4,675 bases of DNA from positions 1 to 4,675 of IMG/VR virus record IMGVR_UViG_2663763286_000001; one strand, written 5' to 3'. The DNA comes from a virus. Lineage: Duplodnaviria; Heunggongvirae; Uroviricota; Caudoviricetes. Below are positions 1 to 4,675 of the stretch, piece after piece (position 1 is the stretch's first letter; each line of letters opens with the position of its first letter). Made by a program: the position numbers and the translations under genes. The notes under the pieces are model-generated. The model did not search any database. It was not told where the DNA came from and worked only from the letters and a program-made list of their open reading frames with translations.

Positions 1-161
1 TAACGTGGGTGGACTGGTATAACAATCGACGATTGCTGGAAAGGCTGGGCCATATTCCTCCGGCAGAAGCAGAAAAAGCTTATTATGCTTCCATCGGAAA
101 TAATGATCTGGCAGCCTGAGTTCACAGATAAAATACTCTCCAGGAAACCCGGGGCGGTTCA
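1..161 (+). mobile_element. IS3-family insertion sequence (IS629/IS1203-like), right end; element continues beyond the window start
   Basis: Transposase reading frame ends at 119, followed by a terminal repeat 122..161 whose reverse complement reads TGAACCGCCCCGGGTTTCCTGGAGAG..., matching from memory the IS629/IS3411-type terminal inverted repeat. The element ends ...GGTTCA (CA-3'), as IS3-family ends do. The left end is outside the window, so the repeat pair cannot be confirmed. Confidence 0.6.
3..119 (+). CDS. Transposase OrfB C-terminal fragment (rve/DDE integrase-core type), 5'-truncated by the window edge
   Basis: Frame 3 translates to TWVDWYNNRRLLERLGHIPPAEAEKAYYASIGNNDLAA*. The YNxRR...LG...PAE pattern is typical of the C-terminus of rve-domain transposases, and a terminal inverted repeat follows directly. 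Confidence 0.55.
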   Translation, partial: TWVDWYNNRRLLERLGHIPPAEAEKAYYASIGNNDLAA

Positions 162-198
162 AATAAATGCCACCGCTATTGCAACTCCTACAGCGGTG
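162..198 (-). terminator. Putative intrinsic terminator downstream of the DUF551 gene
   Basis: Inverted repeat CACCGCT (171..177) / AGCGGTG (192..198) with a 14-nt loop; on the minus-strand RNA it is followed by GCAUUUAUUUG. The loop is long and the U-tract is interrupted, so this is weak. The IS end abuts it at 161. Confidence 0.3.
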
Positions 199-217
199 AA
201 TGCTTCAGGCCAATTCA

Positions 218-721
218 TCACTTCACCTCCTGCGGCGGTTCCGGTAGCGGCATCCAGTGGGTTACCTCTTTGAGATACAGGTCTTCGCCATCACCGTCAT
301 CCCAAGTGGGATTGCCATCATTAAACCAGTCGCCATATACGCCGACCTGAGTGTTGGGGATGTTTGGCGGGTAGTTGTTTTTAAAGTCAGCCGCTAACAC
401 ATAGCATTGTCGCTCTCCCATTTCTGGCATTTGCTCACTACAGCTTATCCAACCATCCGGAGTTACCGGAACTGGCGGCGCGGCATATAGTGGTTTAGGT
501 GATATCTCCGCACGTTTTGCGTATGCTTCAACTGTGTCAGGATTAAACAGGATTATGTTTTCGCCGCATTCCCACGCTATTGGTTTTGCTTCCAGCGATG
601 CCAGAGCAATTCGTGCCAGTTCTTCCGCTTCTTCTGCTGGCAGTACAACGTTGCTACCAGGTCCGTATGTTTCGCGCCACTGCTTGATTGTCAGTAGTCG
701 CTCTTTGGTTATAGTGGTCAT
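218..721 (-). CDS. Phage DUF551-domain protein (167 aa)
   Basis: Intact ORF ending in a double stop (TGATGA). The C-terminal half (PDGWISCSEQMPE...GVYGDWFNDGNPTWDDGDGE...THWMPLPEPP) fits my recollection of DUF551 proteins of lambdoid prophages. Its ATG overlaps the upstream stop as ATGA. Confidence 0.8.
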   Translation of the reverse strand: MTTITKERLLTIKQWRETYGPGSNVVLPAEEAEELARIALASLEAKPIAWECGENIILFNPDTVEAYAKRAEISPKPLYAAPPVPVTPDGWISCSEQMPEMGERQCYVLAADFKNNYPPNIPNTQVGVYGDWFNDGNPTWDDGDGEDLYLKEVTHWMPLPEPPQEVK

Positions 722-927
722 TTGTTAACACTCAAAACTTTATGCCCGGGCGCAAAAGCACGTGTTTTGTCTTTGCTTATTCGCCAGCCATCCTTACGCG
801 CCTCTTTTGCACAACCAGCCCATGACGTACCGATATACTCTCCGAAGTCTGGCACTTGATATACACCTTCCGTACACTGGCGGCAGTCACAATAGAGATG
901 CATGGTGTAACTTGCGGCAATAGCCAT
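718..927 (-). CDS. Small Cys-containing hypothetical protein (69 aa; MAIAASYTMHLYCDCRQCTEG...)
   Basis: ATG at 927 is preceded by AAGGAGAG with a 4-nt spacer. Cys at positions 13, 15, 18 and 39 (CxCxxC...C). Stop overlaps the DUF551 start (ATGA). The 93-aa version in the track is an upstream extension with no ribosome-binding site that would overlap the neighbouring gene. Confidence 0.65.
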   Translation of the reverse strand: MAIAASYTMHLYCDCRQCTEGVYQVPDFGEYIGTSWAGCAKEARKDGWRISKDKTRAFAPGHKVLSVNK

Positions 928-928
928 A

Positions 929-1117
929 TCACTCTCCTTTAGTACGCAAGTGGTTTTTCCAGCGGTTTTGCGCCGCGCTGGGCTTTTTGCAAAAACCACA
1001 ATCCATCATCCCGTAATGTTTCATTAACCCCATCCGTCGGTTGCTGAGTCTCACCCACTGCCAGACGCCAGGAGCGTTTCTACGAACTAACAGAATCTTT
1101 GCTTTACGGTTTTTCAT
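929..1117 (-). CDS. Small basic hypothetical protein with a CxxC motif (62 aa; MKNRKAKILLVRR...)
   Basis: ATG at 1117 is preceded by CAGGAGAG with a 7-nt spacer. Its stop lies 1 nt before the next gene's ATG. The frame stays open upstream to 1276 (115-aa version adding a second CxxC), but that extension has no start codon with usable Shine-Dalgarno spacing. Confidence 0.6.
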   Translation of the reverse strand: MKNRKAKILLVRRNAPGVWQWVRLSNRRMGLMKHYGMMDCGFCKKPSAAQNRWKNHLRTKGE

Positions 1118-1269
1118 CGTTTTGCTCTCCTGCGTCTCTTTGCTGCTCGTCGTGCCGCTGCAATACCGGTATGGCGGCGCTTTGGTGTCGGGATGATGTT
1201 CTTTGCAATTAGCGCAGAAGCCCAAAAACGAGTCGGATACGGTAACAAGCCGAGACATGCCACACGCAT
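1114..1269 (-). CDS. Possible Arg-rich 51-aa ORF (MRVACLGLLPYPTRFW...RRAAKRRRRAKR), alternative frame to the extension of the 929..1117 gene
   Basis: Best ribosome-binding site in the window (AGGAGGTGA, 6-nt spacer, ATG). Start overlaps the upstream stop (TAATG) and stop overlaps the downstream start (ATGA). The low-complexity Arg/Ala-rich C-terminus and rare Arg codons argue against it being a real protein. Confidence 0.3.
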   Translation of the reverse strand: MRVACLGLLPYPTRFWASALIAKNIIPTPKRRHTGIAAARRAAKRRRRAKR

Positions 1270-1718
1270 TACTCACCTCCTTTGATGCGAATGCCAGCGG
1301 CGCGTAATGCGTGTTCTAGGTCAATCAGGTAAAGCCAACTGCCATTTTCTTTAGGTATCATGACTTGTCGCTCATCTGCATTTATCGGGTGTCCATATCG
1401 AAGGTCGTAGAGAGTCGGTAATTGAACTTCCCGCGCTTCCAGTTCAGCAATACGCTTGCACCCATCAGAGATAACTCCCTCGTAATACTCGCGCTGCTCG
1501 TTGAGTTTTGATTTTGTCTCCTCAAGCTCAACGCGCAGCTTCCCTACCGTTAGCGCAATATCCTCGTTCTCCTGGTCGCGGCGGTAGAGGCTACAATAGC
1601 TGCTGAAGCATGCACTTGTTGGATATTCACCAACAATGCCGCGACAAAAATCATCTTCTTCACTTGTCAGCTCCTTTGCGAATCTGTTCCGCCCATTCTT
1701 CAAGGGATTTCTCCGCAT
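1269..1718 (-). CDS. Hypothetical phage protein (about 144-161 aa depending on start; ...WLYLIDLEHALRAAGIRIKGGE)
   Basis: Long minus-strand ORF. The only canonical in-frame start codons with meaningful length lie inside the upstream gene: ATG at 1754, ATG at 1718 (GGTGA only 2 nt upstream), TTG at 1703 (GGAGA with a 6-nt spacer). The reported start is provisional. Possibly Ea22-like by position; no motif recognised. Confidence 0.6.
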   Translation of the reverse strand: MRRNPLKNGRNRFAKELTSEEDDFCRGIVGEYPTSACFSSYCSLYRRDQENEDIALTVGKLRVELEETKSKLNEQREYYEGVISDGCKRIAELEAREVQLPTLYDLRYGHPINADERQVMIPKENGSWLYLIDLEHALRAAGIRIKGGE

Positions 1719-2274
1719 ATTCACCGGACAGGCCATCAATCGGGTACGGTTCATTAGCCAACTCTTCTTTCGCTGACAGAATCATGCGCGTAACGTCGAA
1801 AACTTCACGCAAAGACTTATTGATAAATCCGTGATTGAACGCAGCAGCAAGACGGCTGGCGGTATAGTTAATACCCTCGTTGCGTGCTTCCGCACGAATT
1901 TCAGCCAGAAAAGCATCGGTAGCTGGAGTTTCGCTGTGGTGTAGGGCATCGTTGATAATCATTGCAGCAACTCCGGCCTGCCCTGCATCCGTGACCGACA
2001 CATGATCAAGAGTTACAGCTATTGCGTGTTTCAGCCCGGCGTTCTCCGCCGCCAGCGCTGAAAACTTCTCGTGTGCCAACTTAACAGCCGAATCAGCCTG
2101 CTTAATTGACTCAATCGCTTTCTGCTGGTCTTCGGACAGAGCCGAAATCTTGGCCTCCGCTTCAGCAAATTTACGCACAAGATATTCAGCGTTTGTTTCG
2201 TTAACCTTTAAATCACATGGGATGCATTTACCTTTCAGAAATCCATCCATCTCAATTAGTGTCATTTGTTTCAT
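1660..2274 (-). CDS. Hypothetical mildly acidic, Ala/Glu-rich phage protein (204 aa from [12 protein letters not shown]...)
   Basis: Long ORF whose ATG at 2274 overlaps the upstream stop (ATGA). Composition suggests helical/coiled-coil regions (inference). Alternative starts are GTG at 2292 and ATG at 2265. Confidence 0.7.
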
Positions 2275-2435
2275 TTCTTCCCACTCCGCCACATCGCATT
2301 CAGATATTTGTTATCATTAACAGAGCAGAAACTCTTTCTCTTAAGCAATTCCTCTCTCGATGGCATTGGCTTTACGCGTTGGCGAATAATCATTTCTGCC
2401 GGAAGAATGCCGGGATTGTATGCAAGTCCTCTCAT
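2271..2435 (-). CDS. Small hypothetical protein (54 aa; [34 protein letters not shown]...)
   Basis: ATG at 2435 is preceded by TGAGGAA with a 6-nt spacer, where TGA is the upstream gene's stop. Its own stop overlaps the next ATG (ATGA). The track's 65-aa version from 2468 has no Shine-Dalgarno sequence and overlaps the upstream gene. Confidence 0.5.
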
Positions 2436-2445
2436 GGTAAATTCC

Positions 2446-2742
2446 TCAGTTATTACTGATAGCGCCATAGCGTGAGCGGTAATTACGCAGGCGCGGGTCG
2501 ATATATTCAGGGAATTTGTCTATTGTCGCTTTTCGCAACGGTCTCATTGCTGTTTCGTTTGTTCGGTCCTTCTCCTGTTTTAGCGCGAGTTGTATATCGC
2601 GTCGGTACATCCGTTCTGCTTTTGTTTCTGGTGTCAGAGCAAGAAACGCGTCGAAATTGTTTTTGATATTTCCCAGCACCTCCGCCTTGGAGCTACCGGA
2701 GCAGTTGCGCGGGTCATCCGCACCATACAGAGGCGCTGGCAT
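2446..2742 (-). CDS. Hypothetical phage protein (98 aa; [51 protein letters not shown]...)
   Basis: ORF beginning 23 nt downstream of the DUF669 stop, with a weak AAGG about 9-10 nt upstream. Same strand and tight spacing as its neighbours. No recognisable motif. Confidence 0.65.
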
Positions 2743-2765
2743 AATGGGAGCCTTATTTTCAGTAA

Positions 2766-3353
2766 TCAGAAAGGAGGGTAATCGTTCTGGCTGTAACCAT
2801 AATCATCTGCATGATTATGGCTTACGTTTTTAGAGCGATTGTCTTTATCTTTGAGGCTGGCAACCATGTTGGCGATAGTTTCTGGTTGCTTGCCTTCTGC
2901 CTTTTCTTTAAGGGTTTGACCTGTTTGTGCAATAAACGGGATGCGTATTTCCATCTGGTAGCTGTCTGCGCCAGTCTTTTTGTTTGTGGTTAATACTTTC
3001 TGGAGCACTAACCCGATTTTCTTTCCATGAAATTCAGGTGCAACAAATTTACTGGCGGAAACCATATGTTGCGTTAATTGTCCAATCCCGGCACACCCCA
3101 TCATGGCGTGAACGACATTTGCGCCAAATTTGTTTTCCGTGCCGTCATTTTTCTGAACACAGACGCTAAGATACTGGATTTTACGTCCGTCGTCGGATTC
3201 TCCAGAAAACTCAATAAATTTGGCTCCTTTTTCTGATTGCTTGAGTTCTGCTTCAGTAATGGTAATTATGTAAGCGCCAGTTTCGTTAATAAAACCACCT
3301 TGCCCTGCGGTCAGTGCTGCTTCTTCGTTATAAGTAAAAATTACGTTGCTCAT
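2766..3353 (-). CDS. DUF669-like phage protein (195 aa), the usual partner of Sak4-type recombinases; possible ssDNA-binding role
   Basis: Start overlaps the Sak4 stop (ATGA), with AAGGA upstream. Size, position directly after a Sak4-like ATPase, and N-terminal sequence (MSNVIFTYNEEAALTAGQGGFINETGAYIITITEAEL...) fit my recollection of DUF669. The domain assignment is not verified. Confidence 0.7.
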   Translation of the reverse strand: MSNVIFTYNEEAALTAGQGGFINETGAYIITITEAELKQSEKGAKFIEFSGESDDGRKIQYLSVCVQKNDGTENKFGANVVHAMMGCAGIGQLTQHMVSASKFVAPEFHGKKIGLVLQKVLTTNKKTGADSYQMEIRIPFIAQTGQTLKEKAEGKQPETIANMVASLKDKDNRSKNVSHNHADDYGYSQNDYPPF

Positions 3354-4030
3354 GCGGCGTTTTCCTTAATTTGATGAACATTATTGATGCCGTAGTAATC
3401 ACAAACAGTGGCATCGACGAAAGAGAGATCGTTATCAATCTCATTGGAATCAAACATTCCCATTGGGGATTTAACAGTGTCTGCACCGTTGTTTTTCGTG
3501 GTGAAAAAGAACTGGTCATCGCGGGTAAGAGTGCGAAGAACTATAGTAAACATGCCTTCGACAGTGATTTTCTCGTCCAGCATTTTGCCGATAGTCTTCA
3601 TTTTCACGCGCCCCATAGGGGTTTCTTCGGTGTGCGCAAGAAAATAGACTCTCAGGTCATCAGGCGCATCCTGTGCAGCCTTAATGACCTCCCATGCGTG
3701 GCGGCCTATCTCAGTAAATTTATCAAACGATTTTTCTTCTGAGCGGCGCATAAACTCATTGCTCATCACATACTGGAAGTCATCAACAATAACGATTCTT
3801 TTCCCGTATTCGTGAGCACGCTTAATTACGGCAACTATTACGCCCCATTTGTCAGTGGTAACTACGGTTCCTTTTTTTGCTCTGGCATCCCATGCAAGCC
3901 AGTCTTTTGATTTAAATGGTAGCGGCTTGCCTATTGGTTTTATAAGTATTGCTTCCTCTGGATTGATATTTCTCATGCTGGTTGATTTTCCGGTGCCAGA
4001 CTCACCGAGTATTAATATCGCAGTTCCCAT
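3350..4030 (-). CDS. Sak4-like core-only RecA-family ATPase (AAA_24-type), 226 aa; phage recombination/ssDNA-annealing module
   Basis: Walker A motif GESGTGKST at residues 9-17 and Walker B-like RIVIVDD. The roughly 220-aa size is typical of phage Sak4. GGTGA lies 3 nt upstream of the ATG. It sits where lambda carries bet/exo. Confidence 0.85.
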   Translation of the reverse strand: MGTAILILGESGTGKSTSMRNINPEEAILIKPIGKPLPFKSKDWLAWDARAKKGTVVTTDKWGVIVAVIKRAHEYGKRIVIVDDFQYVMSNEFMRRSEEKSFDKFTEIGRHAWEVIKAAQDAPDDLRVYFLAHTEETPMGRVKMKTIGKMLDEKITVEGMFTIVLRTLTRDDQFFFTTKNNGADTVKSPMGMFDSNEIDNDLSFVDATVCDYYGINNVHQIKENAA

Positions 4031-4038
4031 AATTCACC

Positions 4039-4227
4039 TCAGAATGGTAATTCGGATGGGGAGGAAAGAAATTCGCGCTCATTCATGCGCTCTCTTTGTG
4101 CCAGCCATAAGCAAAGTTGTTTCTTTGATTTATCTCCCGCTTTACGCCAGTAACGAGCCTCAGCAATGTGATACTCTCTTTTTAATCGACTTAACTCTGG
4201 AGTTTTCGCCAGTTCTACCGGGATCAT
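4039..4227 (-). CDS. Hypothetical small protein in the gam position (62 aa from MIPVELAKTPELSRLKREYHIAEARYWRK...; 66 aa if started at 4239)
   Basis: ATG at 4227 overlaps the kil stop (ATGA) and is preceded by GGAGG with a 5-nt spacer. The alternative ATG at 4239 lies inside kil and has no Shine-Dalgarno sequence. The protein is unlike lambda Gam as I recall it. Confidence 0.6.
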   Translation of the reverse strand: MIPVELAKTPELSRLKREYHIAEARYWRKAGDKSKKQLCLWLAQRERMNEREFLSSPSELPF

Positions 4228-4337
4228 TTTGACCTCCATTTTCTGTAGGCTTCGACGGCCTCACGAAACATCTTTTCATCGCCAATAAAAGTGGCGATAG
4301 TGAATTTAGTCTGGATAGCCATAAGTGTTTTATCCAT
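4224..4337 (-). CDS. kil: Kil, host cell-division (FtsZ) inhibitor homolog, 37 aa
   Basis: Translation MDKTLMAIQTKFTIATFIGDEKMFREAVEAYRKWRSK is near-identical over about 33 residues to lambda Kil as I recall it (MDQTLMAIQTKFTIATFIGDEKMFREAVDAYKKW...). AGGAG lies 9 nt upstream. The start overlaps the cIII stop by 8 nt, as in lambda. Confidence 0.85.
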   Translation of the reverse strand: MDKTLMAIQTKFTIATFIGDEKMFREAVEAYRKWRSK

Positions 4338-4470
4338 TTTTGGGAACTCCTGGCTGATTAAGTACGTCGATGAGTCGCTTCCATCCGTCACGTAATTTAC
4401 GGGTGATTCGTTCAAGTAAAGATTCGGAAGGGCAGCCAGCAACAGGCCACCCTGCAATGGCATATTGCAT
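4330..4470 (-). CDS. cIII: CIII, FtsH (HflB) protease inhibitor that stabilises CII, 46 aa
   Basis: Translation MQYAIAGWPVAGCPSESLLERITRKLRDGWKRLIDVLNQPGVPKNG matches lambda CIII residues 1-46 with one substitution (I35V), from memory. The ribosome-binding region TAAATAAGGAGCACACCATG matches the lambda cIII leader. The track's longer ORF is an upstream extension that runs through the terminator hairpins. Confidence 0.9.
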   Translation of the reverse strand: MQYAIAGWPVAGCPSESLLERITRKLRDGWKRLIDVLNQPGVPKNG

Positions 4471-4495
4471 GGTGTGCTCCTTATTTATACATAAC
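4471..4495 (-). promoter_or_regulatory. cIII translation-initiation leader (Shine-Dalgarno AGGAG plus upstream AU-rich tract)
   Basis: Minus-strand sequence UUCGUUAUGUAUAAAUAAGGAGCACACC-AUG is essentially the lambda cIII leader. In lambda this region is known to be subject to RNase III and alternative-structure control; applying that here is by homology. Confidence 0.5.
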
Positions 4496-4517
4496 GAAAA
4501 ACGCCTCGAGTGAAGCG
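4496..4517 (-). terminator. Intrinsic terminator-like hairpin plus U5 just upstream of cIII (tL1-like position)
   Basis: Minus-strand RNA CGCUUC-ACUC-GAGGCG (6-bp stem including one G-U pair, 4-nt loop) followed by UUUUUCG. Confidence 0.5.
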
Positions 4518-4530
4518 TTATTGGTATGCA

Positions 4531-4559
4531 TATAAAAAGGCCCTCACGCACTGGAGGGC
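4531..4559 (-). terminator. Second intrinsic terminator-like hairpin plus U-tract, in tandem with the first
   Basis: Minus-strand RNA GCCCUC-CAGUGCGU-GAGGGC (6-bp GC-rich stem, 8-nt loop) followed by CUUUUUAUAU. Confidence 0.5.
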
Positions 4560-4621
4560 AAAGAAGATTTCCAATAATCAGAACAAGTCGGCTCCTGTTT
4601 AGTTACGAGCGACATTGCTCC

Positions 4622-4649
4622 GTGTATTCACTCGTTGGAATGAATACAC
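4622..4649. repeat. Perfect 9-bp inverted repeat GTGTATTCA-(10 nt)-TGAATACAC
   Basis: Seen directly in the sequence. There is no adjacent T-tract on either strand, so it is not a canonical terminator. It may lie within the 3' end of an upstream minus-strand gene that is cut off by the window edge. Confidence 0.4.
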
Positions 4650-4675
4650 AGTGCTTATTCGTACTAATAAAATAC

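Follow-up and report, generated by a model that had tools for sequence, protein, structure and literature searches.

The window, by which we mean the whole 4,675-nt stretch of DNA that was analysed, joins the right-hand end of an insertion sequence (IS) to a lambdoid early-left (pL) operon, whose long ORFs, between 218 and about 4,470, are all on the minus strand. Its features are as follows:

1..161, plus strand: right-hand 161 nt of a 1,310-bp IS629/IS1203-group (IS3-family) element, 100% identical to complete copies
3..119, plus strand: last 38 codons of the IS transposase (…VDWYNNRRLLERLGHIPPAEAEKAYYASIGNNDLAA and stop, stop codon 117-119), its 5' part lying beyond the window start
136..161, no strand: right terminal inverted repeat (IRR) of the IS, ending ...GGGGCGGTTCA, from the comparison of IRL and IRR in complete copies
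161..162, no strand: IS/prophage junction, from the homology break against IS-free genomes and the empty site of the IS-free strain L019
162..164, no strand: AAT (or AATA, should the duplication be 4 bp long), predicted to be the right-hand copy of a 3-bp target-site duplication, as suggested by the 3-4 bp duplications of the IS group
159..218, minus strand: truncated small ORF (MNWPEAFTAVGVAIAVAFI and stop), 19 of 27 codons, with an ATG that overlaps the DUF551 stop (TGATG)
171..198, no strand: inverted repeat CACCGCUGU/AUAGCGGUG within codons 7-16 of the small ORF
218..721, minus strand: DUF551 gene, 167 aa, last annotated gene of the arm in the window (Pfam PF04448, E=3e-20; stop codon 218-220)
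722..4675, minus strand: rest of the lambdoid pL-operon arm, 100% identical to L019
In the pL operon, minus strand: DUF2737, a 203-aa ORF, an Ead/Ea22 remnant and 65/69-aa ORFs
2446-2742, minus strand: Abc2 anti-RecBCD
2766-3353, minus strand: DUF669-type protein
3350-4030, minus strand: AAA ATPase
In the pL operon, minus strand: a 62-aa ORF
In the pL operon, minus strand: kil, from the Lambda_Kil gene call in identical loci
In the pL operon, minus strand: cIII, from the Lambda_CIII gene call in identical loci and the lambda cIII thermoregulator at 4425-4483 (Rfam, 88.5 bits)

Positions 1-161 are identical to the final 161 nt of many complete 1,310-bp IS copies in STEC genomes, which PGAP annotates as 'IS3 family transposase, programmed frameshift'. 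In these complete copies, the first 13-14 nt of IRL and IRR are the same and an imperfect match extends to about 26 nt; the termini are the TG...CA of IS3/IS629 elements, with full copies beginning TGAACCGCCCCGG and the window's copy ending ...GGGGCGGTTCA at 161. Their full-length transposase products match HTH_Tnp_1, rve and rve_3, so that length, orfA-orfB arrangement, frameshift and DDE domain are those of the IS3 family in the complete copies, the window's own copy being visible for its last 161 nt only. A copy in strain 2013C-4974 (L051, 452-1761) starts with TGAACCGCCCCGG, ends with CCGGGGCGGTTCA, is flanked by the 3-bp duplication GAT and is annotated by PGAP as an IS3-family transposase with a programmed frameshift and pseudoknot; another copy of the group (L052) is flanked by CTAC. 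Duplications of 3-4 bp have been described for IS629 (PMC3271280).

The L051 copy shares 97.2% identity with an O157:H7 copy named IS1203 by PGAP and 95.7% with the copy in E110019, and positions 1-161 of the window show 6 and 4 mismatches to these two, respectively. Three IS629 subtypes with a spread of 4-5% have been published (PMC3271280), and the divergence of the window's variant (…ASIGNNDLAA) from the IS1203 (2.8%) and E110019 (4.3%) copies falls within that spread. Depositors have labelled contig-end fragments identical to the window's variant 'transposase for IS629'. We assign positions 1-161 to the end of an IS629/IS1203-group, IS3-family element, a variant that by sequence match is also found in O26 and O157 STEC. 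Read from full copies, the resemblance to IS629/IS1203/IS3411 of EHEC/STEC and Shigella covers the 1,310-bp length, the TG...CA termini, the two overlapping ORFs with a programmed frameshift (annotated by PGAP in L051, L002 and L052) and the 3-4 bp duplications. An earlier, sequence-only reading of this DNA had proposed an IS3-family element from its terminal repeat, and both the repeat and the 161 nt as a whole match complete copies annotated as such.

The position of the IS end is equally well defined. Seven IS-free finished E. coli genomes align to window 162-721 with 99.8% identity, and their homology breaks exactly at 162; in the E110019 chromosome this IS occupies another site, with the same ...CCCGGGGCGGTTCA end and divergence directly after it. 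Together with the complete IS copies, these genomes establish the end at 161 that had been read from the terminal repeat. The DUF551 stop had been placed about 57 bp away, and the spacing to the stop codon at 218-220 is indeed 56 nt (162-217). Two further elements of that reading held: the transposase gene is convergent with the prophage pL operon, and the operon still carries cIII and kil, as the Rfam thermoregulator and the gene calls in identical loci show.

The comparison with IS-free homologous prophages that this reading had called for became possible through the window's exact ATPase, which, like the 69-aa ORF, occurs verbatim on only about 50-70 contigs, and which led to two IS-free loci, L018 and L019. 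The L019 arm (GCA_005400765.1, BIED01000140.1) lies at mlrA and has 0 mismatches in 4,514 nt to window 162-4675; it differs in having an IS-free site, which reads ...gcgaatacag|AATAAATGCC, and an intact 27-codon ORF across it. L018 matches window 162-4529 perfectly, after which identity drops to 95.9%. The last 146 nt of the window accordingly lie past a mosaic boundary at 4530, in a module type common to other lambdoid prophages. The Stx2a phages LC6160xx match from window position 1, but carry the IS at an unrelated position and share only the 2030-4529 module. As a separate observation, L019 has an IS of the same group elsewhere: at the end of the contig, the right end of that IS lies 185 bp upstream of N.

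In both L018 and L019, the arm reads DUF551, an 84-nt gap, DUF4222, a 44-aa ORF, xis (DUF1233), int and mlrA (yehV). Numbered on L019, the junction falls at 6379|6380, DUF4222 at 6411-6653, xis at 6810-7064 and int at 7098-8384; everything past the junction, from the 27-codon ORF to mlrA and including xis and int, lies within 2 kb. DUF4222, the 44-aa ORF, xis, int and mlrA follow the DUF551 gene in 10 of 10 genomes that encode the identical DUF551 protein, and phage BP-4795 has the same gene order beyond DUF551. The isogenic L018 and L019 arms keep xis, int and the host junction. The expectation that xis/int would be found directly at this end of the operon was wrong in one respect: the 27-codon ORF, DUF4222 and the 44-aa ORF intervene, and xis begins 431 bp past the junction.

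The 84-nt gap between DUF551 and DUF4222 corresponds to a 27-codon ORF (MNWPEAFTAVGVAIAVAFILYSLFRWG), intact in the IS-free loci L001 and L019. In its intact form it has a GGAGG upstream of its ATG and ends in TAA, followed after 4 nt by the ATG of DUF4222. In the window, the stop of the cut ORF is a TGA (159-161), the complement of the terminal TCA of the IS, in frame after codon 19. As read from the empty site, the target of the IS is this ORF, 431 bp upstream of xis, and neither xis nor int. The truncated peptide would lack the C-terminal eight residues (LYSLFRWG) and with them the conserved RWG.

Several lines of evidence indicate that this ORF is coding. A tblastn search with the 27-aa peptide gave full-length matches in 94 of 96 phage records, at identities from 100% down to about 46%. 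Among ten phage and prophage homologues examined in detail, with amino-acid identities of 48-100%, nine have exactly 27 codons. In all ten, the start ATG shares bases with the stop codon of the preceding gene, whatever that gene is (ATGA or TGATG), and a GGAGG or GAAGG is usually found 8-12 nt ahead of it. The peptides share the motif MxWP[ED]A...G...RW[GR], or more narrowly M[NTS]WP[ED]A...G...RW[GR], and pN/pS relative to the window allele is 0.27-0.79 (divergent comparisons). Frame and length, start context and synonymous bias are those of a genuine small protein-coding gene, with one pseudogene among the homologues, the phiSTEC1589 copy, where codon 3 carries a nonsense change (TGG->TAG). 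DNA of the small ORF, essentially full length, is present in 1,560 of 5,426 finished E. coli genomes (29%).

None of the 13 records inspected annotates the small ORF (among them L001, BP-4795, 933W, ArgO145, Av-05, WGPS2, PhiR12_1, 666R9, phiSTEC1589, 18-1-2, L078 and L079), and the gene callers behind L018 and L019 likewise leave it uncalled. The 27-aa peptide has no significant match to Pfam, NCBIfam or PHROG families, and its peptide strings are absent from the literature searched. It has a hydrophobic core (mean Kyte-Doolittle 2.0-2.3, residues 6-24) with an acidic N-terminal and a basic C-terminal side. In being small, hydrophobic, single-pass and located among prophage accessory genes, it resembles Hok-type toxins and other membrane peptides of less than 50 aa, and in 933W and strain 503440 it lies directly upstream of a hok locus. 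It differs from the Hok-type toxins in having no evident antisense RNA or other toxin-antitoxin feature, and in its apparent translational coupling to the upstream gene, with no separate regulation. We consider it fairly likely that the ORF is a genuine, widely conserved and never-annotated phage membrane-peptide gene, translationally coupled to the gene that closes the accessory block (often DUF551) and present in about 29% of finished E. coli genomes as well as in lytic Vequintavirinae phages (Av-05, 18-1-2); the window would then hold a natural allele truncated C-terminally to 19 aa. This peptide gene family, a by-product of the analysis, is the only item absent from the databases and literature searched; it is mildly new and of some annotation value.

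The coding assignment bears directly on the inverted repeat at 171-198, which the sequence-only reading had taken for a putative terminator hairpin close to the junction. The repeat itself exists, 9 nt from the junction: CACCGCUGU and AUAGCGGUG form 9 pairs, including one G-U, around a 10-nt loop, at -13.5 kcal/mol. A functional intrinsic terminator, or a structured insertion target, would mark the end of the early-left operon at this point and give a reason for the IS to have inserted beside it; besides the stability and position of the stem, the moderately T-rich sequence downstream in the IS-free form (GCATTTATTCTGTATTCGCTTTTCC) speaks for such a role. The remaining observations do not. The tail of the hairpin (GCAUUUAUUC...) reads GCAUUUAUUCUGUAUUCG where the IS is absent and GCAUUUAUUUGAACC in the window, with no U-run, and a consensus terminator scan leaves the hairpin uncalled in both the window and the IS-free locus. 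The 76-nt hairpin region folds no better than shuffled sequences (z-score 0.21), no match for the hairpin was found in Rfam, and perfect 7-bp stems with loops of 3-14 nt number 10 in the window, versus 3.3 +/- 2.1 in shuffles. The repeat lies inside the conserved 27-codon ORF, and DUF4222, xis and int follow downstream on the same strand and in the same transcription unit.

Comparison among homologues separates the structure from the peptide. The window-type structure has a calculated energy of -11.9 kcal/mol in the window and -9.6 kcal/mol in BP-4795, where two synonymous changes already weaken it, and ranges from -3.3 to +12.5 kcal/mol in eight others. The hairpin is thus lost in 8 of 10 homologues, all eight of which keep the 27-codon frame, seven of them intact. 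Since divergent homologues keep the peptide but lose the structure, and since the U-tract is missing, we regard the hairpin as incidental, a by-product of coding ...T-A-V...A-V... with ACCGCUGU and AUAGCGGU. IS629 sites are moreover reported to have highly diverged flanks (Rump et al., PMC3271280). A terminator or target role for the hairpin is therefore very unlikely, and what stands of the earlier claim is the repeat and its proximity to the junction.

The left-hand limit of the window has its own explanation. At least ten contigs of GCA_000948825.1 start at the same IS offset as the window, with the 38-aa partial transposase at 3..119; in the index this product appears in 55 blocks, and the ten places among the matches listed all come from that assembly. 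Almost certainly, the window is a complete contig of a short-read assembly, broken off inside a multicopy IS. The other end of the window behaves in a comparable way, its last 146 nt lying in the further mosaic module described above. Because a repeat ends the contig, nothing about deletion follows from the lack of xis/int in the window: a start inside a multicopy IS is an assembly horizon, and 'missing' neighbours beyond it are not readable as deletions without long reads. Contigs with the window's exact ATPase fall into two size classes, 2-5 kb in 20 index blocks and 0.2-1 Mb in 20 others, a pattern that suggests, without proving it, that IS-bearing and IS-free lineages are both well sampled.

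A contig of this kind raises the question of whether the junction is real. An assembly chimera, absent from the source genome, might be suspected in a short contig that ends in a repeat, the more so as the junction occurs in no other public sequence searched. The exact junction (26-35 nt across 161/162) had no match in GTDB representative genomes, IMG/VR or JGI metagenomes; a megablast of window 1-800 against finished E. coli genomes returned no record with this junction; and no database record was found for the junction-spanning 62-aa ORF (85-273) or for the 203-aa and 210-aa window ORFs. Searches for the left-junction contig through contig-end OrfA fragments of the E110019 variant (P0046, P0052) or of the correct variant (P0085, P0078) recovered only unrelated contigs, and the 93-aa window ORF, followed as another lead to the left junction, pointed to a different prophage. 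The form of the break, however, is that of a real insertion: it coincides exactly with the last nucleotide of the IS inverted repeat, as in transposition and unlike a k-mer mis-join. Extending a unique flank into a repeat is what De Bruijn assemblers normally do, and the window's break matches this behaviour. The recurrence of the exact ATPase on 2-5 kb contigs further suggests a recurrent, real break in a lineage. We consider a chimera extremely improbable.

The reading that best accounts for these observations is a simple insertion of an IS629 copy into a lambdoid prophage that occupies mlrA (yehV), in the arm next to its integration genes. The IS hit the unannotated 27-codon ORF, which fills the DUF551-DUF4222 gap, is apparently coupled to DUF551 in translation and encodes a putative single-pass hydrophobic peptide. 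DUF4222, the 44-aa ORF, xis, int and attL-mlrA would then probably still be present beyond the 1.3-kb IS, with a 3-bp AAT duplication at the target. Such an insertion predicts that the left end of the IS adjoins ...GCGAATACAG(AAT), and that ...CCAGCGGAAAAGCGAATACAGAAT is joined to TGAACCGCCCCGGAAATCC.

The alternative is that the IS marks the edge of a loss. DUF4222, xis, int and attL could have been removed by an adjacent deletion, by a deletion that IEE promotes or by recombination of one IS copy with another, leaving a truncated, non-excisable remnant, much as the sequence-only reading had supposed. There are precedents for this: in L003, a relative with the same DUF551-to-int arm, this IS, without target duplication, stands in place of the missing cro through gam. 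Only 21 of 47 O157 IS629 sites have a clean target duplication, leaving 26 of 47 without one (PMC3271280). IS629 accounts for many genomic deletions, and IEE-dependent adjacent deletions vary in size between a few nucleotides and over 40 kb (PMC9943667); the source genome, moreover, appears very IS-rich, given the many occurrences of the partial transposase in one assembly. The window itself bears no sign of a deletion, as isogenic sequence simply continues at the right junction, and the absence of xis/int is fully explained by the contig end in a repeat. The insertion also looks recent, because no difference from the empty-site strain has accumulated in 4.5 kb. Finally, two other insertions of the IS group lie within 1 kb of the site, and in these xis/int or the remainder has been kept. 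We consider a deletion less likely than a simple insertion, though a substantial possibility.

These neighbouring insertions show what simple insertion into this arm looks like. In O157:H7 F7349, xisR of the homologous mlrA prophage is interrupted by an IS of the same group, which is flanked by a clean CTAC duplication, and int is retained; FRIK804 and others appear, from the same match pattern, to have the same xisR insertion; in E110019 the IS is located at the 3' end of DUF4222, with both xis and int retained. The three insertions of the IS group in this arm share their orientation, although three of three is not significant (p=0.25).

In the preferred reading of a simple insertion, 1.3 kb of IS, antisense to the operon, would lie between pL and the genes DUF4222, xis and int. 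The pL transcript is the only source of Xis in lambda, and N is classically able to suppress IS polarity. Because Xis comes only from that transcript, the insertion should be polar on excision, barring N read-through: we infer that pL-driven Xis/Int expression would fall or cease if RNA polymerase modified by N does not traverse the IS. The consequences could lie anywhere between no effect and a prophage locked in mlrA ('IS entrapment').

The closest documented parallel is the xisR::IS1203 insertion of O157 strains (F7349/FRIK804), which shares with the present one the IS group, the type of arm and the orientation (convergent with pL), at sites within about 0.6 kb of each other. It differs in that the IS there interrupts xis itself, whereas here it lies in the 27-codon ORF upstream. 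Any effect on excision in the window's prophage would accordingly be exerted through transcriptional polarity and not through gene disruption, because the IS is upstream of xis. The insertion of IS629 into the excisionase gene of O157 prophages has been described together with the idea of 'IS entrapment' (Shaaban et al. 2016, PMC5359411), 62% of O157 IS629 copies are located in prophages (PMC3271280), and the documented prophage insertions of IS629 include xis and stx.

Against this background, the window adds an ordinary insertion allele, new as such, although IS and prophage type are both known and the phenomenon is already documented. As an IS finding it is of low importance, because the concentration of IS629 in EHEC prophages, insertions into excision genes and prophage trapping have already been published (PMC5359411, PMC3271280). 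For the host, the relevance lies in the integration site: prophage insertion at mlrA limits curli and biofilm formation (PMC3874044, PMC5931665). If the IS does block pL-driven expression of xis/int, it would tend to fix the mlrA-prophage phenotype and to retain the prophage cargo.

Three independent insertions of IS629/IS1203-group elements lie within about 1 kb of one another in the int-proximal arm of mlrA-integrated prophages, and in all three the transposase gene converges with pL:

L052 1352-2661 (O157:H7 F7349), element in xisR, flanked by a CTAC duplication
L002 3850-5159 (E110019), element at the 3' end of the DUF4222 gene
Window 1-161, element in the small ORF between the DUF551 and DUF4222 genes

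This clustering, which with n = 3 is not significant, may mark a hot spot in this region or may reflect selection that favours entrapment.

The small ORF interrupted in the window is unannotated and has 27 codons when intact; in every case its start codon overlaps the stop codon of the gene before it. Its copies were located as follows:

Window 159-218, minus strand, form cut by the IS
L019 6323-6406, intact form in the strain with the empty site
L001 5974-6057, minus strand, intact form
L014 2501-2584, further uninterrupted copy
L015-L017 (L015 being 933W) 1501-1584, further uninterrupted copies
L063-L067 901-984, further uninterrupted copies

The predicted product is a hydrophobic peptide with the motif M[NTS]WP[ED]A..G..RW[GR], which matches no family in Pfam, NCBIfam or PHROG and had no match in the literature searched. 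The ORF is carried by 1,560 of the 5,426 finished E. coli genomes and by the Stx phages 933W, BP-4795 and ArgO145, as well as by the lytic Vequintavirinae phages Av-05 and 18-1-2.

Its downstream neighbourhood was compared in three regions:

L015 1501-1950 (933W)
L079 601-1050
L066 901-1350

In both 933W and E. coli 503440, a hok/sok-type toxin locus (hokW, hokD) lies about 150-210 nt downstream of the ORF. The phiSTEC1589 copy of the ORF is a pseudogene, with codon 3 changed from TGG to TAG; about 210 nt downstream, a 52-aa CDS annotated as "tail fiber protein" occupies the place that the hok gene holds in 933W and E. coli 503440.

Elsewhere in the window, the match of the Ead/Ea22-like ORF (1269-1754, minus strand) to Pfam PF13935 is confined to the C-terminal 54 positions of the family. 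Its frame overlaps the upstream gene by some 94 nt, and no in-frame start codon follows the stop codon of that gene. The ORF, called in L019 as a gene of 144 aa but not called in L018, another IS-free strain, is probably a recombination remnant. Further along, a full-length match to the Rfam family Lambda_thermo, the cIII thermoregulator (4425-4483, minus strand; 88.5 bits, E = 2e-21), confirms the presence of cIII together with its RNA switch. A mosaic boundary follows at 4529/4530, up to which L018 is 100% identical to the window and past which identity is 95.9%. The window ends at 4675, 146 nt into the second module, a position consistent with a contig break at sequence common to other prophages of the same genome.

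The probable source genome, GCA_000948825.1 (contigs L020-L029), is rich in IS copies, with 55 index blocks listing the partial transposase product. Its copies lie in or beside the following loci, the gene names being our interpretation of Pfam context and not annotations:

tynA
A dipeptide-permease-type (PTR2/MFS) gene
A plasmid-like replication/partition region
A truncated integrase flanking a polyamine-type ABC transporter
At least one other prophage arm (L024, adjoining Ead/Ea22 and DUF551 genes)

The empty-site strain carries another copy of this IS group (L019 1-196; 98.8% identical to window 1-161), with its orientation relative to the operon reversed. The right end of this copy coincides with the contig end, 185 bp upstream of the N gene, and the copy may separate N from pL. 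In the relative L003, whose arm from DUF551 to int is the same, the IS (5330-6639) sits between cII and bet without a target duplication, and the genes cro, cI, N, cIII, kil and gam are absent. L003 is an example of an IS-flanked deletion within this prophage family.
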